The notes beneath the pieces were generated by a model. It was given only the letters and a program-made list of their open reading frames with translations. It did no database searches and was not told the DNA's origin. Shown one piece after another: positions 15,450-28,277 of a stretch of DNA of 64,000 nucleotides (the first letter of the stretch is position 1; every line of letters starts with the position of its first letter). Position numbers and translations under genes: made by a program. The DNA is taken from positions 64,001 to 128,000 of IMG/VR virus record IMGVR_UViG_3300010282_000004; one strand, given 5' to 3'. This DNA is from a virus (lineage: Duplodnaviria; Caudoviricetes).

Positions 15450-16196
15450 TTAAATTTGATCAGATTCTCTATTGATAAACAATAAGTTTTCAGCATAAGG
15501 CAATGACTTCGCCCATTCAATAAACTTATGCCACTCAGACAACTTATGTCCTTCTCTCTGATCGCACATATTTAAAATGTTTTCATAATTCATAGTTACT
15601 GTTCTTTTCTGCAACCATGATTCTGGAAGTAATCTTATAAGTTCTTTCCAATAATATTTTGATACCGATACAAAATGTTTTCTTTAACTGCAAGTAATAT
15701 CTTCTCTCTTTGATGCATCAGCATATTCGATTGCTCTTTTCCTTAAAGTCTCAAGATGACAAATCATTTCTTCCCAGATGTCACACATGAGATTATCTAA
15801 GTTATATGGCTGACGGTCATACACTAAAAGGTTTGGTTCATAATCTTCCATTTCAAAACATTCCATTGTAATAGGTGTACTTAAAAGTTTATGCATAGTA
15901 CTTGTTGAGTTTGCAGTCGTACCAACTTTATATGTATCAAATTCTTTCCACCAATAGATTGGAGCAGTGATATCAACACTTGCAGTAACCTGACGAAGAA
16001 ACTTTCTATGCTCTGATCCTGCTTTAATCAGATTCTGTGCAAGCTTTAAATCTTTTTCACCAACAACAAAACCATTGGAGTTGTCATTTGTGCTATCACT
16101 TTTATCCCATGATTCAAGAGGGTTTCTCATTCCTCTTAATGCACCTTTAATATTAAAAACTTCTGTATTCTCAAATTTCATTCCATCTATTCCCAT
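15450..16196 (-). pseudogene. Divergent ThyX-like (FAD-dependent thymidylate synthase-related) phage gene interrupted by one in-frame TAA at 15684-15686
   Basis: HRKFLRQ...ITAPIYWWKEFDTY...STMH; the same frame continues after the TAA with YWKELIRLLPESWLQKRTVTMNY...HKLSEW to TAA 15450. Confidence 0.7.
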
Positions 16197-17080
16197 CCTT
16201 TCTTTATATAGAAGTTATGCGCCCCATCATTACAAACCTTCTTATATTTAAGTACTCCATTGCTATCAAAGAACAAAGCATTACCAACTTCTGAACCACC
16301 AATCTCGTAGGCATATTCACATGCAAGAACAGTTAAGTCTGAAACTGTAACTCTTTTGTATCTTCCACTTGAATAAGTTGAGAACTGTTTCTTTGCTCTA
16401 AGTACATCTCCTAAATTATTAGGAAAGTGTTCGCTTTTTACTCTGTTTAAAATGACTGTAGCCACATTAACCTTCTGCTCAAATGTATGTTCATCTCCGA
16501 TTTCAGCCTGTACAATTCTGAAGAATAAATCTAAATCATCAGCACTGAAGTCTTGATATAACTTTCCTTCAATCCCATAATCCTCTCTGTTATATAAAGT
16601 AACTACATCGCCACCACTAACAGTTGTTGCAGTAGTAGGTTCTGCCAGGATAGATCCTGAGATAGTAGGAAGTTCCTCTTCTTTCTTCTTAAGCAATTCA
16701 GCAGCCTTTCTTTCAGCTTCTTCCTTTTCTTTCTTTGCTTTCTCCATAGCAAGTCTTTCTTTGCGAAGTTGCTCAATCTTTCTAAGTTCTACCATTGCGA
16801 TTGTCTGTTTAATTTTTTCAACTTGGTTGTTGTAATAATTAAGTCTGGCAATTCTTTGACGAATTAAACCAGACTGTCTAATCAATTCATTTTCTGTAAT
16901 ATCTGTTATCACCGAAAGTGATTCTCCAATTTCTGATCCTTTTGTTTCTTCCTGTTCGTCCTTTGTTTCTTCCATATTAGTTTGTGTTTCATCATATTCC
17001 CTATAATTGGAATAAGTTACGATGAATGTTGCCATAGCCAAGCATAAAAACATCATGACTATTTTGTGTAATCTTTTCAT
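16187..17080 (-). CDS. Cell wall hydrolase, SleB/Hydrolase_2 family, with N-terminal membrane anchor and coiled coil
   Basis: RIVQAE...VATVILNRV...FPN...V...QFS...ALFF...HNFY. Confidence 0.85.
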   Translation of the reverse strand: MKRLHKIVMMFLCLAMATFIVTYSNYREYDETQTNMEETKDEQEETKGSEIGESLSVITDITENELIRQSGLIRQRIARLNYYNNQVEKIKQTIAMVELRKIEQLRKERLAMEKAKKEKEEAERKAAELLKKKEEELPTISGSILAEPTTATTVSGGDVVTLYNREDYGIEGKLYQDFSADDLDLFFRIVQAEIGDEHTFEQKVNVATVILNRVKSEHFPNNLGDVLRAKKQFSTYSSGRYKRVTVSDLTVLACEYAYEIGGSEVGNALFFDSNGVLKYKKVCNDGAHNFYIKKGWE

Positions 17081-18640: not shown

Positions 18641-19129
18641 TTAGTAATCTACTTTGATTATTTTTGATAAATCAATTTTTGTATTTGGTTCTTTAATAAC
18701 GTGTATGTTATTTTTAAATAGATCTTCTCTAAACTTTTTCGGTTCAATCTCTTTCAGTTCTTTTTCCAAATCTTCCACTGTCATTATTTTCATTTTTTGA
18801 CTCAATGCTCTTTCTAATTCTAACTTAGACCCATTAGACTTATTCCAACCGGGAATCATGTAGATAATTTCACACATGTCAAGCAGTTTATAGTCAATCT
18901 CCATATACTCATCATAACTCATGTCTGTTGGCAATATGTCATTCACTTTTGCTGGGTTGATAACAGAATAACCAAGGTCTTTTAGTTTGGTTTCTGCATT
19001 GTAAAAATTTTCTTTATAATCAGGCACTCCTGTAATACCGCCACTGATGTAAACTCTTTTGCCATAAGAGCCATCGCATAGTCTATCTATTTTGTTAATT
19101 GATGCAAGATCTTCTTTCCTAATACTCAT
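18641..19129 (-). CDS. DUF4406-like protein (nucleoside deoxyribosyltransferase-like fold)
   Basis: VYISGGITG...VINPA...YM...IYMIPGW.KS.G..LE. Confidence 0.75.
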   Translation of the reverse strand: MSIRKEDLASINKIDRLCDGSYGKRVYISGGITGVPDYKENFYNAETKLKDLGYSVINPAKVNDILPTDMSYDEYMEIDYKLLDMCEIIYMIPGWNKSNGSKLELERALSQKMKIMTVEDLEKELKEIEPKKFREDLFKNNIHVIKEPNTKIDLSKIIKVDY

Positions 19130-20640: not shown

Positions 20641-20863
20641 AAAAAAATAGCAGTGTGCATTACACACACCGCCAAATGAAAAGAGGTTTAAATATTGGAT
20701 ACGAAAAAATAAATATGAAAAACAAAACTAAGTGGTCGGGCAGAGCCTTTCACTCTTGCAGCACCCTTGCCAAGTTCAGGTACTTATTACTAAGTCGATT
20801 ACCTTGCTGATCGAGGGAATATTATTGTCTTGAATGTGTTTATCTTTCACCACCGACCACTTT
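20641..20863 (-). ncRNA. Candidate small RNA with its own promoter motif and terminator
   Basis: Follows AGAGAATA (20871-20878); AAGTGGTCGG/CCGACCACTT closing stem; GCGGTGTG/CACACTGC plus U-run terminator at 20641-20673. Confidence 0.5.
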
Positions 20864-20881
20864 AATATATTATTCTCTGTT

Positions 20882-21262
20882 TTAATATCTTTCATCATCT
20901 AAAATTTTAATAATACCACTTTCTTCCATATCGAATAGTCTATCTCTTAATTCTTCATTGCAATTATCAACTTCTTTTACAAATATAACATTGCCATTTT
21001 CAAATTCTTTTTTACATTCATTCATCAATTCAGTTTCATCATCATAAAAACATCCGTCCATTTCATCAAATGATCTAAATAGTTCTCCTCTGCTATCCTC
21101 TGGATAATAATCATCACTCTTTAACATAGACATAATTGTTTCACCAAAATCTTTAAGGAATGGATATTTATCAACTGTATCCTTATCAATCGGATCTTCA
21201 TTAAAACTTATAATAAAACTACTACTACTAGAATTTGTTACAAAATCTGTTCTAACCTTCAT
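20882..21262 (-). CDS. FVTNSSSSSF-tag protein 3
   Basis: Starts MKVRTDFVTNSSSSSFII. Confidence 0.8.
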   Translation of the reverse strand: MKVRTDFVTNSSSSSFIISFNEDPIDKDTVDKYPFLKDFGETIMSMLKSDDYYPEDSRGELFRSFDEMDGCFYDDETELMNECKKEFENGNVIFVKEVDNCNEELRDRLFDMEESGIIKILDDERY

Positions 21263-21435
21263 TATTCATCTTCACCTTCTTCGTCTGGAATTGGAATACT
21301 ATATTCAATTTCTGCACCACAATTACAACAATGCAACACATGGACAATACCTTCACCTTCATAGCAGAAATCCTCAAACGTAAAGTCATTATCCCAAATT
21401 ACTGTCCGGCAACCACAATGAAAACATTCATACAT
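21262..21435 (-). CDS. 57-aa Zn-ribbon protein (not in the ORF track)
   Basis: MYECFHCGCRTVIWDNDF...LHCCNCGAEIEY; GAGGTG RBS; TAATG overlap with the next gene. Confidence 0.7.
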   Translation of the reverse strand: MYECFHCGCRTVIWDNDFTFEDFCYEGEGIVHVLHCCNCGAEIEYSIPIPDEEGEDE

Positions 21436-21450
21436 TTTTATCTCACCTCA

Positions 21451-22173
21451 CTATCCCATATGATTACAACTAAATCTACTAACATCCATCAACTTATTTA
21501 CTACATAGGAAGGAATATTCCCACTTTCAGAGCTGACACACACTTTACCAAGTATATATAATGGTGCTTGTTCTTTTGTAATATTTAATTGCTTGGTTTT
21601 ATATTCAACTTCATCTTCGTTAAAATACCAATATAATATATCTTCTTTGATATCTTTATCTTTTATTTCATTAACACCATATTTCCCATAATGCAAAATG
21701 TCTACATCACTATTCCCAAATTCAAATATTGTAAATGGTGCATGTGGGAAATATTTATTATCAGACTTACTCATCTTATCAATCCAATATCTCTCATAGT
21801 TTTTATATGTATTACACTTTCTCCATTCATCTTCATACAAATAATCTAATGTGTTTACACCAAACATCTTATCCAATTTTAAATCAAGTTTGAATATTGC
21901 AATTTTATCACTTTTTTTATCTTCATACATATCTCTATCATACATAATTTGATAATACATATTATCACTATTGCCAGTTAGTTCAAACCTTGCTTTCGGA
22001 TCTATATTATCCTTTATGTAATTAAAAGCCTTGTTTAACTGTATTACATATTCTGCATAAAGCTTTTTAATCATCTGATACACTGACTCTACTGTAATAT
22101 CAGTATAGTCCTCTCTACCAATAATAAAGCTGCTTGAAGATGAGTTTGTTACAAAATCTGTTCTAATTTTCAT
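21451..22173 (-). CDS. FVTNSSSSSF-tag protein 2
   Basis: Starts MKIRTDFVTNSSSSSFII. Confidence 0.8.
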   Translation of the reverse strand: MKIRTDFVTNSSSSSFIIGREDYTDITVESVYQMIKKLYAEYVIQLNKAFNYIKDNIDPKARFELTGNSDNMYYQIMYDRDMYEDKKSDKIAIFKLDLKLDKMFGVNTLDYLYEDEWRKCNTYKNYERYWIDKMSKSDNKYFPHAPFTIFEFGNSDVDILHYGKYGVNEIKDKDIKEDILYWYFNEDEVEYKTKQLNITKEQAPLYILGKVCVSSESGNIPSYVVNKLMDVSRFSCNHMG

Positions 22174-22182
22174 ATCTTCCTC

Positions 22183-22668
22183 CTAGTCACAATAGCCACG
22201 TTCATAAGGTATGTCCCCGAAATATTCTTCGATTGTATTCCAATCGTATCTGTATTCACCAAGATTATCTACAATGTAATGATGATCATATTTTGTAATA
22301 TCTTCTTTACTCTCAGGGGCTTCTTCGTAATGATTTTTAAAACCACCAAAATACTTATCATTACGTAAATAGTATGGATTATCTGGTGTTGCTTTGCCAA
22401 CGTAATAGTTACCAGCTACACGTAAATACTCTGGATAATCTTCATCGAAGTCCATATGCTTAACCTTATATTCTTTCTTAGGTTTCTTCTTGGATTTGTT
22501 ATCCTCATCTTCGTCATAATCATCACCATAGTCATAGTATAAGTCATTGTATTCTTCATTAGCCATATCAATTAACTTCTTAATCAGTTTACCAAATGTA
22601 ATGTTTTTGGTATCAATAATAAAACTTGAACTACTACTGTTTGTTACAAAATCGTTTCTAATTTTCAT
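22183..22668 (-). CDS. FVTNSSSSSF-tag protein 1
   Basis: Starts MKIRNDFVTNSSSSSFII; ATGA overlap with the rSAM stop codon. Confidence 0.8.
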   Translation of the reverse strand: MKIRNDFVTNSSSSSFIIDTKNITFGKLIKKLIDMANEEYNDLYYDYGDDYDEDEDNKSKKKPKKEYKVKHMDFDEDYPEYLRVAGNYYVGKATPDNPYYLRNDKYFGGFKNHYEEAPESKEDITKYDHHYIVDNLGEYRYDWNTIEEYFGDIPYERGYCD

Positions 22669-23747
22669 AGTAAATTTTTCTCCTTTCTATCACACAATAC
22701 AATATTTCTTCTTATAGGGCATCCACCCATACACTCTCTTCTATTTGGGCATTCACTACAAGAATTTCTAAAATGACTTCTAAAGTCATCGAATTGTTTA
22801 CTATTCCATGCATTCTGAATTGTGTCATTGGAAATGTCATATGCCCATCTAAGTTCTTGATTGTCAAAGCTGCAAGGAATCATCTTCATATCAGATGTAA
22901 TATAACAAGACCAACGTCCACCCTCACAAGTATCGAAGCTATCATGGTTAATGTTTTTAGTATGGTTAATAAGTCCAGGAATGCTACATGAATCAAATCC
23001 GATTCCAAAATCAAATGTCTTTGTATCAATGAGTTCAAAAAATCTTTTAACCTTATCATCATTTACATTCAAGACATTTGCAGTACTTCCTTGACCAACA
23101 TCTTTATGTAATAACCAAATAACATTTCTAATACCATTTGGAAAATCATTTTTTTCAAGCCTTTCAATAGCCTCATCAATAGAGTTATTACCAAGGACAT
23201 AATGAATATTTGTTCTTACACCAGCTTTAAGCAACAACTCAATTGCTCTATAGGTATGCTCTTGTCTATACCAACTGATTGCAACTGCACCACAATACTC
23301 CTTACAAATATCAGCAATTCTTTCTGTAAAACCAAGACCTGATGATGTAAAATTCGGAACAATACCACATCTTCTTGAGTATGCTAATATCTCTTCAAAG
23401 TTTTCGTGCTGATCTACATCACCACGACCACCAAGGGCAAATGTATATGTTTTATTAACACATTCATCTGCAATCTTTTTAAAGTTTTCAAATGTCATAT
23501 TTGGCATTTTTGTTCCGAGACCATTTTGGTAACATTGCACACCGCCTTTAATGCATAACCCACTACAACCATGGATGCAATGTCCCATTATCCCTATATC
23601 AATTAACTCAGGAAAGTCAGCCATAAAAGGATCTACACCTGTGTCCTTACCATTCTCATCGATGACACCAGATCTCATATAGAACCCGGTCTTTGGATTA
23701 AACATTGATACAAAATTATTTTTTTTATCTATCTTCTTTATCATCAT
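22665..23747 (-). CDS. Radical SAM/SPASM-domain protein with a non-canonical Cys motif
   Basis: GHCIHGCSGLCIKGGVQCYQ, ALGGRGD, SPASM CEGG...IPCSF...CSEC...CMGGCP. Confidence 0.88.
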   Translation of the reverse strand: MMIKKIDKKNNFVSMFNPKTGFYMRSGVIDENGKDTGVDPFMADFPELIDIGIMGHCIHGCSGLCIKGGVQCYQNGLGTKMPNMTFENFKKIADECVNKTYTFALGGRGDVDQHENFEEILAYSRRCGIVPNFTSSGLGFTERIADICKEYCGAVAISWYRQEHTYRAIELLLKAGVRTNIHYVLGNNSIDEAIERLEKNDFPNGIRNVIWLLHKDVGQGSTANVLNVNDDKVKRFFELIDTKTFDFGIGFDSCSIPGLINHTKNINHDSFDTCEGGRWSCYITSDMKMIPCSFDNQELRWAYDISNDTIQNAWNSKQFDDFRSHFRNSCSECPNRRECMGGCPIRRNIVLCDRKEKNLL

Positions 23748-23979: not shown

Positions 23980-24373
23980 ATACTATCTCCCTATCACTCT
24001 TGCACCCATTTAATGCCCACGTTAAATTATCAATAATCTTAAGAATATCGCTTTCTTCGTATACGACAAAATAACTATTTTCATCATAATCATGATCACA
24101 TGTGTCGGTTGTTGTTTCACTGATTGAATTTTCTAATAAAATATAACCATCTTGTCTGTCCATTTTAACTTCAACATAATCTAACATGTGTAAAACACAA
24201 CAAAAATGACCACTATTTTCAGAAAAATAACCATCTTCAGTATGACCACATAAAATATTTAATCCATCAATGTCCATATCACCATTATATTTACCAAAGT
24301 TATCATCTACAATTTGACTAAACACAGTTCCATTTGGCATATGTGCTAATTCTTTTATGTTTACTATTTTCAT
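23960..24373 (-). CDS. Hypothetical phage protein
   Basis: MKIVN.KE...MP.GTVFS start; RBS. Confidence 0.6.
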   Translation of the reverse strand: MKIVNIKELAHMPNGTVFSQIVDDNFGKYNGDMDIDGLNILCGHTEDGYFSENSGHFCCVLHMLDYVEVKMDRQDGYILLENSISETTTDTCDHDYDENSYFVVYEESDILKIIDNLTWALNGCKSDREIVYDDRRI

Positions 24374-24903
24374 AAATTGTTCTCCTCAATATACTTTTCT
24401 AATATTGTAAACTTTTCTTCCAATTTATTAAATCTTTCTCTTCTCTCTTTAATACGTTCTTCTTTCTCACGTCTAATTTCATCTTCAACTTTTTGAACAT
24501 GCTCCATGTTTTCGTACTTATATTGAGCAATCTTATCTGCAAAAATTTTCTTTGCATGTTCTTCATCTTCTGCTAATAAACTAATAGAATATTCGCCATT
24601 ATGATTAAAATGCATTTCGTTATTTTCATACCATTCAAATGGGTTACTCCAAGGTTTTTCAAGAGATTCTCTAGTAATATAAATTTTTCCATCAAATTTC
24701 CTACGACAAAAGAACCCAATTTTACCACGATACGTTTTCTTCATGTCTCTTAAATCAATCTTAACCTCATCAGTATCAAACTCTGTTATTGATGCATCTG
24801 GACATACATAGTCAACATACTGCTTTGCAATCTCATAGTTGTCTGTAACATGAGAAACATATCTATCAGAATATTCTCCAACTTCAATCACATATACTTT
24901 CAT
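24370..24903 (-). CDS. Hypothetical protein, paralog of 24884-25321
   Basis: Shared N-terminal domain. Confidence 0.6.
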   Translation of the reverse strand: MKVYVIEVGEYSDRYVSHVTDNYEIAKQYVDYVCPDASITEFDTDEVKIDLRDMKKTYRGKIGFFCRRKFDGKIYITRESLEKPWSNPFEWYENNEMHFNHNGEYSISLLAEDEEHAKKIFADKIAQYKYENMEHVQKVEDEIRREKEERIKERRERFNKLEEKFTILEKYIEENNL

Positions 24904-25321
24904 CGCTCATTCTCCTTTTTTCTCTCAATTGTTTCCTAAACTCTGCAATCATTTTTTCTTCTTCAATATAATCGTTCATCATCTTCCTGAATTTCTTCTC
25001 AGCTTCTTCTCTATCGTTTGCAAAAATATGACCAATAGCAGTTCCACCATTAACACTAAACATATCGTTATCTATATCATCATCAGAAATACCTTCATTT
25101 TTAACAACAATAGGAGAATGAGGTTCTCTAGTACATTTATATAACTTTTTACCATTATATTTTTCTATAACTGGATCAACCTTTTCACATACCTTGTCTG
25201 AATCAAATTCTTTTATACTTGCATCAGGTCTAATATACTCAATAAATTTTTTTGCATATTCATAATCGTTAGTAATATAACGGACATCACCATAATAATT
25301 CGTTATTGCATATAATTTCAT
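24884..25321 (-). CDS. Hypothetical protein, paralog of 24370-24903
   Basis: Shared N-terminal domain. Confidence 0.6.
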   Translation of the reverse strand: MKLYAITNYYGDVRYITNDYEYAKKFIEYIRPDASIKEFDSDKVCEKVDPVIEKYNGKKLYKCTREPHSPIVVKNEGISDDDIDNDMFSVNGGTAIGHIFANDREEAEKKFRKMMNDYIEEEKMIAEFRKQLREKRRMSDESICD

Positions 25322-25598: not shown

Positions 25599-25895
25599 TT
25601 ACACAACAACCGCACCGGGATTCTTTTTTCTTAAATCAATATCACGTCTACAGTCCTCAATAGAATTAAAATAATATGGAGATTGCAAATAACTAACATA
25701 TTTATTCTCTTCAATCCTATAAATCTTATGTCCGTTGTATGTTTCAGCAACCAAAAGTTCTTCAAAATTACTTCTGCATCCAGAATGACAAAATCTAAAT
25801 GTTTCTCCTTTAATTATAAGTTTAGGAAATGTTTTAATTTGATCAACCATTTTTATGTCATGCTCTTTACCACAATATCTACATTTAATAACCAT
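25599..25895 (-). CDS. Hypothetical Zn-finger (TRASH-like) protein
   Basis: CRYCG...FCHSGC; AAAGGAG RBS. Confidence 0.55.
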   Translation of the reverse strand: MVIKCRYCGKEHDIKMVDQIKTFPKLIIKGETFRFCHSGCRSNFEELLVAETYNGHKIYRIEENKYVSYLQSPYYFNSIEDCRRDIDLRKKNPGAVVV

Positions 25896-25954
25896 AATAA
25901 ACTCTCCTTTCAACAAACACACAATATGTATCTATCTAGTTATTCCACAAAAAT

Positions 25955-25990
25955 AAAAATGAGATACAGAAAAACTGTATCTCATTTAAA
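25955..25990 (-). terminator. Terminator after recD2
   Basis: AAATGAGATACAG / CTGTATCTCATTT hairpin. Confidence 0.75.
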
Positions 25991-25991
25991 A

Positions 25992-28277
25992 TTATTTATC
26001 ATATTTAATAGATAACCATGTGTTTCTACTATTATGACTTGTTCTTATACATTGTAAGAACGCCTGTGGCTCTGCCAATAACAAACATCTTTTCTTTGCT
26101 CTTGTAATTAAAGTATAAAGCATACAATTATCAAGCAATGCATAATGTGTATTATCAATGATACCAATTACTGTTTTATATCCACTACCTTGGCATTTGT
26201 GACATGTAAGTGCATAAGCTAAATCAAGAGCAGACGTTTCATTAATGGTATATTCAACAAACTTTGAGCCACCATTAGTATCATTAAACTTTACGACACA
26301 ATATTTGCTATTATGGTTCTTGTCCTTATTATGAATCTCCACAATGTATCCGATCTCGCCATTGAACACGTTCTTTTGATAGTCATTTACAGTCTGCATT
26401 ACCCTGGCACCAAGCTTAAATGTATTCTCGTAGTTACCAATCTCTTCTTTAACATTCCCAAGTAACTGTTCTTGTAAGAACTTATTGATTTCAAATGTAG
26501 AATTAAGGCAATTTGACTTTCTTGGAACAATGATTACCACATTTTCAAGTCCATCAGTCTCAACCGTTTTTAAGAACGTTTTCGTTGCAATATCAAATAG
26601 ACTCTGACGATTGGTACGAAACATGTAGAACATATCTTGCAGTTCACCACGAACAATCTTCGGTTCAAACGTTCCCCCAAGAGGATTTTTATTCTCTCTT
26701 ATTACATTGGCATCCATGAGAATCCCGGATTTCTTTGCTTGTCTCATAGGCTCTGTAAGTTTGCTAACTACCTTATTGCCAAGTAAGTCTATAATATCAG
26801 AAAATACATTGCCATATCCAATAGGCGGTAACTGTTTATGGTCACCTGATATAATGATTCTAGTCTTGTCATCAATGGCCTCTAACCAATTAAGGAATAA
26901 CCTAGCATTAACCATAGAACCTTCGTCCAAGAAAGCAACATCTACAATCATATGATTATCTTTATTGAATGTAAATGTATTTAACCCCATACATCCTAAT
27001 GTTCTATGGATTGTCATAGCAGGATATCCTGTAGCTTCAACAATTCTTTTGGCAGCCATTGCAGACAATGCACATGCAGATACAGAATGCTTGTTCTCAC
27101 AATAAGCTTTAATAATACCTCTCATTAACGAACTCTTACCAACACCAGCCTTACCAGTAATAACACTAACTGGTCTATTAAGACATGTATTGATTACATT
27201 TTTTTGTTCTTCTGTATATTCAAAGCCTTGTTCTTCTTCAGCTTTCTTAATGCCCATATCATTCTTTTTAGGATCGAGTACAAAACTACAATCTAATTTA
27301 GACTTATTATACAAAATGTCAACAATCTTACATTCAACATCATAGTAATATTTCAATCCAATTTTATCATCCTTTATATATAAGAAGTCGTTGTTCTCTA
27401 AAAGCCACTCAAACTTATCACTACATTCAGTAACTGTGTTATCAATAGCTTCTTTAAGAATATCTTTTGATACCCATGTATGTCCGTCACTCTCACCAAT
27501 CTCCTTTAAATAATATGTTACAAATGCAACAAGCCTTTCAGGAGACTGAAGAAGTTGTGGTTTAAGTTTAAGTGCCAATCCATCAATCTTACGAAAACCT
27601 AATCCAGAAATACGTGTCATAACATATGGGTTTTCTTCAAGTTGTTGTTTAAGCAATGCCGGGTTAGGCTCATCAGTAAGCAACTTCCTAATCATATTAT
27701 ATGTAACACCTAATGGTTTTAACATAATAATGATATCAGAAATAAGGTAGTTATTTAAAATTGTTTCCTTAATACGTTCCCATGTCGCCTTGCCAACACC
27801 TTTAACTTTATTGTAGTCAATATCCTTAACCTCTCCAGAAGTCACATCATTTACAATATTAGGATATGCTTTAGTAAGGTTTACTGCCAAACTCTCACTT
27901 ATTAAAGATTTGAGAAACATAATCTGATCCTCTTCTGTCTGTGGTGCAAGAGCATAAATAGCAATAGGAACGTATTGGTCACCATAAGTCTTATCATACT
28001 TATAAGTGGCTTTGATAGTATACTTCCCACCTACTACTAACTCTTGCATCTTCCCGGACAGAGATGAAAACTTCTTTTCTACATCTGACTTATTATCAAA
28101 TGGTGTAGCAGTTTCTTTTGTATAATGAGGAATGTCATCTTCAGTGGAGAACAAATATGCTCCCCACGAAGAATCTGGATTATAGTATTTCTGATATGTG
28201 ATTGTGGCATCAAACTTTATTACTTCATCATTAGTTGTCAACTCTTCGCACCTCTTTCTTTCATTTGGGCAACCCAT
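25992..28277 (-). CDS. recD2: RecD2-like SF1B helicase
   Basis: HhH motifs, GKAGVGKS, DEGSM, GDHKQL, AYALTCHKCQGS, LYTLITRAK. Confidence 0.9.
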   Translation of the reverse strand: MGCPNERKRCEELTTNDEVIKFDATITYQKYYNPDSSWGAYLFSTEDDIPHYTKETATPFDNKSDVEKKFSSLSGKMQELVVGGKYTIKATYKYDKTYGDQYVPIAIYALAPQTEEDQIMFLKSLISESLAVNLTKAYPNIVNDVTSGEVKDIDYNKVKGVGKATWERIKETILNNYLISDIIIMLKPLGVTYNMIRKLLTDEPNPALLKQQLEENPYVMTRISGLGFRKIDGLALKLKPQLLQSPERLVAFVTYYLKEIGESDGHTWVSKDILKEAIDNTVTECSDKFEWLLENNDFLYIKDDKIGLKYYYDVECKIVDILYNKSKLDCSFVLDPKKNDMGIKKAEEEQGFEYTEEQKNVINTCLNRPVSVITGKAGVGKSSLMRGIIKAYCENKHSVSACALSAMAAKRIVEATGYPAMTIHRTLGCMGLNTFTFNKDNHMIVDVAFLDEGSMVNARLFLNWLEAIDDKTRIIISGDHKQLPPIGYGNVFSDIIDLLGNKVVSKLTEPMRQAKKSGILMDANVIRENKNPLGGTFEPKIVRGELQDMFYMFRTNRQSLFDIATKTFLKTVETDGLENVVIIVPRKSNCLNSTFEINKFLQEQLLGNVKEEIGNYENTFKLGARVMQTVNDYQKNVFNGEIGYIVEIHNKDKNHNSKYCVVKFNDTNGGSKFVEYTINETSALDLAYALTCHKCQGSGYKTVIGIIDNTHYALLDNCMLYTLITRAKKRCLLLAEPQAFLQCIRTSHNSRNTWLSIKYDK

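Follow-up and report, generated by a model that had tools for sequence, protein, structure and literature searches.

The window we analysed is a stretch of 64,000 nucleotides from a viral record of 147.6 kb that belongs to a large gut-type phage. On its minus strand lies the gene for a radical SAM/SPASM enzyme of 360 residues (22665..23747), assigned from Pfam, NCBIfam and PHROG profiles and from an alignment of its cysteines. Three more genes follow on the same strand, each for a small acidic protein. The first encodes tagged protein 1, an acidic protein of 161 residues with 20 full-length homologues (22183..22668); the second, tagged protein 2, of 240 residues, whose family recurs in related enzyme loci (21451..22173); and the third, tagged protein 3, of 126 residues, for which we have a match to phrog_7397 and an AlphaFold model (20882..21262). 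The initial annotation had the enzyme gene overlapping the first of these open reading frames through an ATGA, and the coordinates, lengths and N-termini of all three bear it out: stop and start share the string ctATGAaa, with an AGGAG 12 nt upstream. What the three proteins have in common is how they begin. Each opens with a version of the same peptide, which we call the tag: MKIRNDFVTNSSSSSFII (codons 1-18 of the first gene, 22615..22668), MKIRTDFVTNSSSSSFII (22120..22173) and MKVRTDFVTNSSSSSFII (21209..21262), all on the minus strand, found by motif matching and checked codon by codon. Their common form is MK(I/V)RxDFVTNSSSSSFII, and these three copies, all inside the window, are the only ones in the whole record.

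The serine codons of the tag run AGT AGT AGT TCA AGT in the first copy, TCA TCT TCA AGC AGC in the second and TCT AGT AGT AGT AGT in the third. The copies thus differ across both the TCN and AGY codon boxes, as had been noticed at the outset, so conservation is at the level of the peptide and not of the DNA. A reading of the tag at the RNA level was set aside because of this codon variation, and a signal-peptide reading because the sequence is rich in serine and its hydrophobic run merely short. The general form is MK-h-R/K-x-D-F-V-T-N-S-S-S-S-S-F/Y-h-h at the extreme N-terminus, and it is far beyond chance: 278 real matches against none in reversed six-frame translations of the same 1.5 Mb of related loci. 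Aspartate occupies residue 6 in 256 of 295 motif matches, with G6 and S6 as the variants in enzyme loci; our tag count for viral loci rests on a relaxed motif, since demanding D6 leaves 35 of 80 loci tagless. Residues 19-22, immediately after the tag, are variable. A profile search with the tag returned 23,573 matching protein clusters (50% identity), and in nearly all of the best 150 of these matches the tag begins at residue 1.

Two terminator-like hairpins on the minus strand frame the genes. One, with a 12-bp stem and a run of T (20648..20674), sits about 200 nt past the last tag gene and is probably the end of the transcription unit. The other, predicted after a helicase gene (25957..25987), is probably the upstream boundary of a unit comprising six small open reading frames, the enzyme and the tag genes. 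A C4 Zn-ribbon-like frame of 57 residues (21262..21435) separates tag genes 2 and 3 on the same strand; all its Pfam and NCBIfam matches fall below threshold. The initial annotation was right to place it inside the operon, but membership of the system does not follow, as none of 80 related enzyme loci has a homologue. The Zn-ribbon gene is a bystander and not a conserved component. The six small upstream frames were rejected as parts of the system on the same grounds, and across those 80 loci we found no other operon gene conserved with the enzyme.

The enzyme is not a textbook radical SAM protein. Its cluster loop, C57-x7-C65-x6-C72 with a lineage-specific C61, departs from the canonical Cx3Cx2C loop that holds a [4Fe-4S] cluster, and PF04055 (Radical SAM) finds no match in it; a close homologue (P0128) has a precomputed PF04055 match. 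In a distant clade of the family (34-39% identity) the equivalent place is taken by the canonical C-x3-C-x2-C, other clades have Cx5Cx3C and the phage RB43 has Cx7Cx2C, from which we take the window loop to be a homologous but expanded three-cysteine site. The remainder of the SAM core is where it should be. The GGxG motif is ALGGRGD (104-110), and L105-G106-G107-x-G109, P131-N132-x-T134-x-x-G137 and G153-A154-x-A156-x-S158 are invariant in 42 diverse members. The SPASM domain is recognised by PF13186 (27.5 bits, cut-off 21.5) and TIGR04085 (28, cut-off 27). C254, C274, C292 and C333 are invariant in the family and C330, C339, C343 and C352 are present in the clade of the window enzyme, giving the full C-terminal SPASM set; in the distant clade this region is truncated to a Twitch-like form with four cysteines. 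Residues 20-339 match phrog_7293, a group of phage proteins of unknown function (E=3.4e-25). Against the PDB, the family profile finds SkfB best (6efn, E=1.3e-5) and PqqE next; a search with the single sequence gave only spurious PPR-repeat matches, which we discarded. None of the characterised maturase families compared claims the enzyme. With the anSME model TIGR03942 it reaches 15.2 bits where 349 are required, and PqqE (TIGR02109, 15.9), mycofactocin MftC (TIGR03962, 20.2), the tungsten-cofactor maturase (TIGR04317, 31.1) and the StsB sactipeptide maturase (NF045574, 17.0) all lie below equivalog or exception cut-offs of 265-625 bits. Neither Pfam nor NCBIfam finds an RRE-like or other extra domain; the 360 residues hold core and SPASM only.

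Beyond the tag, the three proteins look unrelated, as first proposed: BLASTP finds no similarity among them, and family profiles align over the first 24 columns only. The wider set of tagged proteins, which we refer to as cargos, falls into 37 BLAST clusters, and with the tag removed not one of 136 cluster pairs reaches an hhalign probability of 90%. The candidate substrates are small (46-240 residues) and acidic (median pI 4.6); Pfam gave nothing credible for 38 cargo representatives, and we found no common motif among the cargos outside the tag. Members of the tagged protein 1 family (alignment A2) share an invariant G-Y-C-D in the C-terminal part as well as a YDHHY motif. The AlphaFold model of the protein (pLDDT 74) places residues 12-19 as a strand within a sheet, with residues 1-12 below 50, and Foldseek finds no fold match for it in the PDB. 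The family of tagged protein 2 is present in 27 of the 80 related enzyme loci; it has no Pfam match, and its look-alikes in the Atlas are viral hypothetical proteins only. In tagged protein 3 the phrog_7397 match is confined to residues 1-31, and the only invariant columns of its family (alignment A3) are those of the tag. Its model (pLDDT 81; residues 1-11 below 50; strand 13-20) suggests a generic alpha+beta, ferredoxin-like fold. Foldseek found no PDB match for this model either, and the generic ferredoxin-like matches of a wide VIA search (best Z 6.0) were dismissed as within the noise range.

The link between tag and enzyme is genetic and runs in both directions. Going from tag to enzyme, 85 of 98 tag-bearing IMG/VR viral records have the enzyme (44/49 and 41/49 in two batches), and among records with a completeness of 90% or more the figure is 16 of 16; the 13 without it are all incomplete. 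Had the tagged proteins mostly occurred without the enzyme, the idea of a joint system would have suffered, and the opposite proved true. The 58 tags of the first batch share the enzyme's strand without exception; 51 are downstream of it, and 13 abut its stop codon. In the other direction, tags lie within 10 kb of the enzyme at 73 of 80 viral loci; the 278 tags there are all on the enzyme's strand, 276 of them downstream within 7 kb, and in 4 of the 7 tagless loci the downstream DNA runs for under 1.5 kb. A locus carries several different cargos (3-6), and the window follows the pattern, with its three tags at M1, directly downstream and on the enzyme's strand. For bacterial loci the figure is 68 of 80, with 96 of 97 tags on the enzyme's strand, about half of them upstream, and a single tag gene adjoining the enzyme is common in bacterial contigs.

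Clusters of tagged proteins turn up in phages from the gut and the rumen, in genomes of Clostridia and in cultured T4-like phages whose hosts are Klebsiella, Enterobacter, Cronobacter and E. coli, the T4-like tag carriers including RB43, KP15 and Miller. Among cultured phages, the enzyme is present in RB43 (CCL97631.1), with 2 tags (CCL97581.1 and CCL97586.1), and in Vibrio phage D479, with 5; T4, RB69, RB49, KVP40 and 44RR2.8t, T4-like all, have neither enzyme nor tag. These tags came from a profile search of individual records, a tblastn of cultured phages with the 21-residue tag having returned no match because so short a query was run with low-complexity filtering. Tag and enzyme genes need not be neighbours: 20-24 kb separates them in RB43.

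Co-folding brought the two partners together. With tag residues 1-35 and the enzyme, three runs gave ipSAE values of 0.83, 0.84 and 0.90 against 0.02 for the best control, with at least 76% contact agreement and a partner pLDDT of at least 65; the tool's mark is reached by 58 of 80 solved complexes and 2 of 110 mismatched pairs, and the values are model confidence, obtained with our own alignments and with ligands riding along, which fall outside that calibration. The co-fold check proposed at the start was run and passed with its controls (0.84 against 0.02). In the model the tag enters the conserved barrel end-on. K2-R4 add a beta-strand that pairs with both enzyme residues 21-25 and the SPASM segment 269-272, D6 sits opposite K/R178, and F7 reaches the floor of the partial TIM barrel, where it packs beside N132, G153 and A154, which belong to the SAM ribose and adenine motifs. 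Interface positions are invariant or at least 90% conserved in 32 of 56 cases, compared with 45 of 304 elsewhere (p=1e-10). The window enzyme departs from near-invariant interface positions through N207R, A208N and K248G, changes common only to a small subclade, and its activity could, judging from sequence, be altered by them. Residue 178 also co-varies with the tag: sets of tags with G6 only are found solely with enzymes lacking K/R178, in three lineages (the L160 clade and L198, both with T, and RB43/D479, with Q), while one T178 lineage retains D6. The D6 and K/R178 covariation rests on about three events. One feature of the models is in conflict with another. Tag residues 12-20 contact the enzyme in the co-fold, yet in the monomer models of two cargos they form a confident core strand, the first of the fold, leaving only residues 1-11 or so hanging free.

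What might the pair be doing? With somewhat better than an even chance, we favour a single enzyme that serves many substrates. On this reading the radical SAM/SPASM protein would recognise the N-terminal tag of unrelated small acidic proteins and leave a radical-derived change in it. The tagged proteins, encoded downstream in the enzyme's operon, would be translationally coupled to it; the enzyme would bind the extreme N-terminal tag and thread it end-on toward the SAM site; and the 5'-deoxyadenosyl radical would take a hydrogen atom from the invariant F7-V8-T9-N10 stretch, or from a serine, leaving a covalent change there. Candidate chemistries are epimerisation, in which nearby C152, a non-cluster cysteine, might serve as hydrogen donor and which leaves mass unchanged; an aryl-C-beta crosslink of the three-residue cyclophane type, from F7 to T9; or oxidation of serine. 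Since residues 12-20 touch the enzyme but become strand 1 of the cargo, it may act on a nascent or unfolded N-terminus or use the free residues 1-11 only. That covalent modification falls inside the tag we rate a toss-up, and direct binding of enzyme to tag in cells, any chemistry and a biological role are things we infer. The initial annotation had proposed a phage-encoded post-translational modification system built on a portable tag. The system as such draws support from the linkage, the unrelated cargos and the co-fold; its particular chemistries, and the tag as the modified site, do not.

The tag may instead be a docking handle and nothing else, with the chemistry happening elsewhere: the target may be the cargo itself, or a small molecule or nucleic acid to which the cargo brings the enzyme; or else the tagged proteins may be interchangeable specificity or regulatory subunits. 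We regard this as unlikely, while giving it real weight. Linkage and co-folding speak of partnership and not of modification, the leaders of RiPPs act as handles, the altered site in characterised RiPP systems usually lying outside the conserved N-terminal piece that provides the handle, and 3-6 different cargos per locus would suit interchangeable adaptors. Against this, cargos with no shared motif outside the tag are unlikely to have a common modification site elsewhere, the co-fold sets F7 against the SAM-binding motifs and not in a peripheral recognition domain, and the enzyme has no RRE-like domain that could hold a leader, just core and SPASM.

A tag with a function of its own, in capsid sorting, as a degron or as an assembly signal, with the enzyme merely sharing an accessory cassette, strikes us as improbable. 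It would fit the distance between tags and enzyme in RB43, and it would echo T4, whose capsid-targeting sequence is a short portable N-terminal piece on small, diverse, fast-evolving internal proteins; that signal is not known to have an enzyme partner. It fares poorly with the bacterial contigs in which a single tag gene adjoins the enzyme, with the co-occurrence in all 16 near-complete records, with the controlled co-fold and with the D6/K178 covariation, and no cleavage motif of the prohead-protease type follows the tag, residues 19-22 being variable. Some T4-like phages carry the present tag too; its sequence is another one, and it also occurs in bacterial contigs together with the enzyme. 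Least probable by far, in our estimation, is that all three genes descend, as diverged paralogues, from one fold whose best-conserved core strand is the tag, the enzyme linkage being hitch-hiking. True, residues 12-20 are beta-strand 1, followed by a helix, in both AlphaFold models. The topologies then part company, one running beta-alpha-alpha-beta-alpha-alpha-beta-alpha-beta and the other a strand, a long helix and a five-strand meander; profiles match over the tag alone, the residues that vary least (6-13) fall largely within the stretch that the models leave unstructured, and the family of tagged protein 3 is invariant nowhere else. The three proteins do not, then, share a single fold.

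Seen from the preferred reading, of one enzyme acting on many tagged proteins, several known systems come close to the module, each differing from it in some respects. Radical SAM/SPASM enzymes mature peptides (RiPPs) or single protein families such as sulfatases and quinohemoprotein subunits. Like anSME/AtsB, the present enzyme lacks an RRE and would work on whole proteins at a short motif containing serine (or cysteine there), with the peptide inside the barrel between core and SPASM domain, here as a predicted co-fold. The anSME motif, C/S-x-P-x-R, is internal and confined to the sulfatases, whereas ours is fixed at residue 1 on dozens to thousands of unrelated families. RiPP maturases with SPASM or Twitch domains (SkfB, PqqE, SuiB, CteB, MftC) share the arrangement of an enzyme gene beside substrates with a common N-terminal recognition sequence. 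In contrast to their short peptides, the candidates here are acidic proteins predicted to fold; the locus has no RRE or other leader-binding domain, no protease, no exporter and no conserved neighbour gene, only the first 16-18 residues are conserved, placed by the model in the active site, and the enzyme misses all NCBIfam equivalog cut-offs by more than 300 bits. In the FxsB and triceptide systems, too, a radical SAM/SPASM gene lies beside variable proteins that keep a short peptide constant at one end and within it an aromatic-x-Ser/Thr triplet, to which F7-V8-T9 and S15-F16 of the present tag correspond. The FXSXX-COOH proteins of FxsB carry their conserved FxSxx piece at the C-terminus, with genes in VMAP/vWA-MoxR conflict systems (Kaur et al. 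2020, PMC7159879); ours is N-terminal, phage-borne and without such neighbours. A chemistry common to triceptide systems and the present module is a conjecture.

Common as the module of enzyme and tag is among phages and gut bacteria, we came across no account of it in the literature searched. One enzyme family is tied to an N-terminal tag of 16-18 residues that heads at least 23,573 clusters at 50% identity. Should the tag be modified, this would be a widespread uncharacterised protein modification, a portable tag with biotechnological potential and a way into a large group of small acidic phage proteins whose function is unknown. In its broadest form the proposal, to which we give slightly less than an even chance, is a general modification system of phages and mobile elements, in which one radical SAM/SPASM enzyme would install an epimer, a cyclophane-type crosslink or an oxidised serine within the first ten or so residues of thousands of unrelated small effectors and so give all of them one chemical trait, for instance resistance to proteases, a reactive warhead or a docking group. 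Radical SAM enzymes would then have a new way of choosing substrates, and the chemistry might be new as well. Our guess is that the cargos serve as host-takeover or anti-defence effectors, since they are hyper-diverse as well as small and acidic and lie in an early-type region. The module is directly testable: RB43 and its relatives carry both enzyme and tags in laboratory hosts.

The initial annotation proposed a phage-encoded post-translational modification system with a portable peptide tag, and the gene arrangement behind that proposal is real. The gene for a 360-aa radical SAM/SPASM enzyme comes first (22665-23747, minus strand), followed on the same strand by tag protein 1 (161 aa, 22183-22668), tag protein 2 (240 aa, 21451-22173), a Zn-ribbon-like ORF of 57 aa (21262-21435) and, last in order, tag protein 3 (126 aa, 20882-21262). 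The enzyme's stop codon and the start of tag protein 1 overlap as ATGA, preceded by AGGAG, and minus-strand terminator-like hairpins (25987-25957 and 20674-20648) flank the transcription unit. The three tag proteins begin MK(I/V)R(N/T)DFVTNSSSSSFII; neither the window nor the rest of the virus record holds a further copy of the tag. Its serine codons alternate between TCN and AGY boxes from copy to copy, which argues that selection acts on the peptide and not the DNA, as had been claimed.

The source record is 147,594 bp long and 83% complete, the window being its bases 64001-128000; GC content in the window is about 32%, and the minus strand carries nearly every gene. Near the operon lie an exonuclease V/Dda-like helicase (25992-28277), a nucleoside 2-deoxyribosyltransferase-like gene (18641-19129) and an endolysin-like gene (16187-17080). 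The enzyme's closest bacterial homologues come from animal-gut genomes of Lachnospiraceae and Oscillospiraceae, so the phage host is probably a member of the gut Clostridia. Upstream of the enzyme, in its transcription unit, two adjacent ORFs of 145 and 177 aa (24370-25321, minus strand) are paralogues (33% identity, E=1e-14), and neither matches a PHROG family. The same unit holds two small, Cys-rich, Zn-ribbon-like ORFs, at 25599-25922 (minus strand) and the one at 21262-21435.

Tag and enzyme travel together, whichever of the two is used as bait. A back-translated tag pattern found at least 117 IMG/VR DNA stretches, whose whole parent records were then searched: among the matches listed, the enzyme was present in 44/49 and 41/49 tag-bearing records and in all 16 that were at least 90% complete, and the 13 records lacking it were all incomplete (1-80% completeness). 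All 58 tags of the first batch lay on the enzyme's strand, again among the matches listed, with 51 downstream of it, 53 within 10 kb and 13 abutting its stop codon. Starting from the enzyme profile, tags occurred within 10 kb in 73 of 80 viral loci, and in four of the seven tagless loci the downstream sequence ran for under 1.5 kb. The 278 tags across viral enzyme loci, typically three to six per locus, were all on the same strand as the enzyme, and 276 lay no more than 7 kb downstream of it; reversed translations, used as a control for the motif, gave no match. Bacterial loci carried a tag in 68 of 80 cases, typically a single one directly upstream or downstream (96/97 on the enzyme's strand). 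Homologues of the remaining operon genes, both Zn-ribbon-like ORFs included, are absent from the 80 related viral enzyme loci. Together with the linkage counts, this makes the enzyme plus its tagged genes the conserved unit, mobile between otherwise unrelated phage backgrounds.

In the enzyme itself, Pfam and NCBIfam detect only the SPASM domain, marginally over threshold; it falls hundreds of bits short of every named radical SAM equivalog in NCBIfam, and the PHROG family that matches it (phrog_7293, E 3e-25) has no assigned function. Among solved structures, profile comparison ranks SkfB (E=1.3e-5) closest, followed by PqqE. In an alignment of 52 homologues drawn from related loci, the SAM-binding core motifs are invariant, and the spacing of the three cluster-loop cysteines (residues 57-72 of the window's enzyme) differs by clade (loci L034, L045, L061, L106 and L199): one clade, 34-39% identical and with a truncated C terminus that is Twitch-like with four cysteines, keeps the canonical Cx3Cx2C; intermediate clades have Cx5Cx3C; the window's clade, with a complete SPASM cysteine set, has Cx7Cx6C; and the enzyme of phage RB43 has Cx7Cx2C. 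On both counts the family reads as a bona fide radical SAM lineage, albeit a divergent one. It is also a large one, with more than 4,500 clusters of homologues at 90% identity. The tag is unchanged despite this variation in loop spacing and C terminus.

Could the tag simply be the first strand of a fold that all its bearers share? We refer to the remainder of each protein as its cargo. Beyond the tag, BLASTP finds no similarity among the window's three proteins, and when the protein-1 and protein-3 family profiles are compared only 24 columns align, which bears out the initial description of the cargos as unrelated. The 212 distinct complete tagged proteins from the fetched loci (46-240 aa, median 138) fall into 37 BLAST clusters, the window's three each in a separate one; once the tag was stripped, none of 136 hhalign pairs from the 17 larger clusters reached 90% probability, and no cluster representative has a Pfam domain in its cargo. 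The cargos are acidic, with a median pI of 4.6 (below 5 in 79%). AlphaFold models based on family alignments speak partly for the shared-strand idea. In protein 1 (pLDDT 74), residues 1-12 score below 50 and a β-strand at 12-19 leads into a long helix and a five-strand meander; in protein 3 (pLDDT 81), residues 1-11 score below 50 and a strand at 13-20 opens a ferredoxin-like α+β arrangement. No PDB structure matches either model significantly. The strand is thus there, but the single fold is not: the disordered start followed by a strand predicts a bipartite tag, with eleven free N-terminal residues, MKxRxDFVTNS, and a Ser-Phe-Ile-Ile segment that would form β-strand 1 in two different folds. 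In the protein-1 family (22183-22668, minus strand; residues 127-161), an invariant C-terminal G-Y-C-D together with the conserved motif Y-D-H-H-Y-(I/V)-x-D-N hints at a metal or active site within the cargo itself.

A 30-column tag profile matched 23,573 representatives of 50%-identity clusters among 1.84 billion proteins (E<=1e-3), and nearly all of the best 150 of the 23,573 matches begin at residue 1. Aspartate sits at exactly residue 6 in 256 of 295 motif occurrences in the fetched loci. The most invariant positions, with either enzyme clade, are F7-V8-T9-N10-S11-S12-S13 and S15; G6 occurs in one gut-phage clade, and G6 with S9 in T4-like phages. Some database proteins (P0141, P0144 and P0145) carry two tags each, one at residue 1 and one internal that starts with a Met of its own. 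Each resembles a pair of adjacent tagged genes read in one frame, which could reflect stop-codon loss, read-through or an alternative genetic code.

Co-folding the enzyme (42-row alignment) with tag residues 1-35 of the protein-3 family, SAM and three 4Fe-4S clusters gave ipSAE values of 0.83, 0.84 and 0.90, against 0.02, 0.02 and 0.00 for three controls, with contact agreement of at least 76% between runs and a partner pLDDT of at least 65. In calibration the mark was attained by 58/80 solved complexes and 2/110 mismatched pairs, a calibration outside which custom alignments and ligands fall. There is no solved homologous complex, which makes it unlikely that the model merely reproduced a known structure. 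Tag residues 1-23 contact the enzyme in the prediction: K2-R4 pair with enzyme residues 21-25 and 269-272, and F7 contacts G21, N132, G153 and A154. The interface is enriched in conserved positions: 32 of its 56 residues are invariant or at least 90% conserved in the family, against 45/304 elsewhere (odds ratio 7.7, p=1e-10), an enrichment partly expected from active-site conservation.

Across 139 enzyme loci, position 178, at the predicted interface, alone separates D6 from non-D6 tag sets. In 104 loci K/R178 accompanies D6, in 26 (two separate tree lineages) T178 accompanies G6-only tags, and in two K178 accompanies S6; a third G6 lineage, RB43 and Vibrio phage D479, has Q178, and one further lineage of four loci combines T178 with D6. 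Tags with Gly for D6 occur only with enzymes missing a basic residue at 178. This covariation is compatible with a D6-K178 contact, although it comes from some three events only. The window's enzyme departs from its family at near-invariant (96-98%) predicted interface positions (K178R, N207R, A208N, F211W and K248G), and its tags are nonetheless canonical. A 94% identical homologue, P0021, has all five substitutions, and the next relatives (P0022-P0024) have some of them and otherwise other residues there; this looks like lineage-specific divergence, not decay.

Computation supports the phage modification-tag interpretation to the extent that it can, and the system is a variant of radical SAM protein/peptide maturation whose unusual logic pairs a single enzyme with many tagged proteins. 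In the best-supported reading, the enzyme would bind the tag's N terminus end-on and present the F7-N10 stretch to SAM. A covalent change may be made within that stretch, given its invariance, its predicted position and the lack of any other common cargo motif or separate recognition domain. Epimerisation is one candidate reaction, because C152, a non-cluster cysteine conserved at 92%, adjoins the residues that touch F7; a cyclophane-type crosslink and Ser oxidation are others. That the cargos are small, acidic, hyper-variable and encoded in an early-type region invites the speculation that they are host-takeover or anti-defence proteins. Our literature search found no paper with the tag motif or describing the enzyme-tag system; the FxSxx system (Kaur et al. 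2020) differs in having a C-terminal motif, where the tag here is N-terminal, and a different gene context.

Among cultured phages, 171 of 50,697 records have an enzyme homologue, at about 28% identity: T4-like phages of Klebsiella, Enterobacter, Cronobacter, Citrobacter and E. coli (RB43, RB16, KP15, Miller) and one Vibrio jumbo phage. The tag profile finds five tags in the complete D479 genome and none in T4, RB69, RB49, KVP40 or 44RR2.8t, from which the enzyme is also absent. In the complete RB43 genome (HE981739.1) it finds two, 20-24 kb from the enzyme CCL97631.1 (92310-93455) and on the same strand: CCL97581.1 (68052-68519) and CCL97586.1 (71936-72448), with the N terminus MKIRSGFVSNSSSSSF (loci L199/L286). 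All three are annotated 'protein of unknown function', and they make RB43 a ready laboratory model for the enzyme and its tagged proteins.
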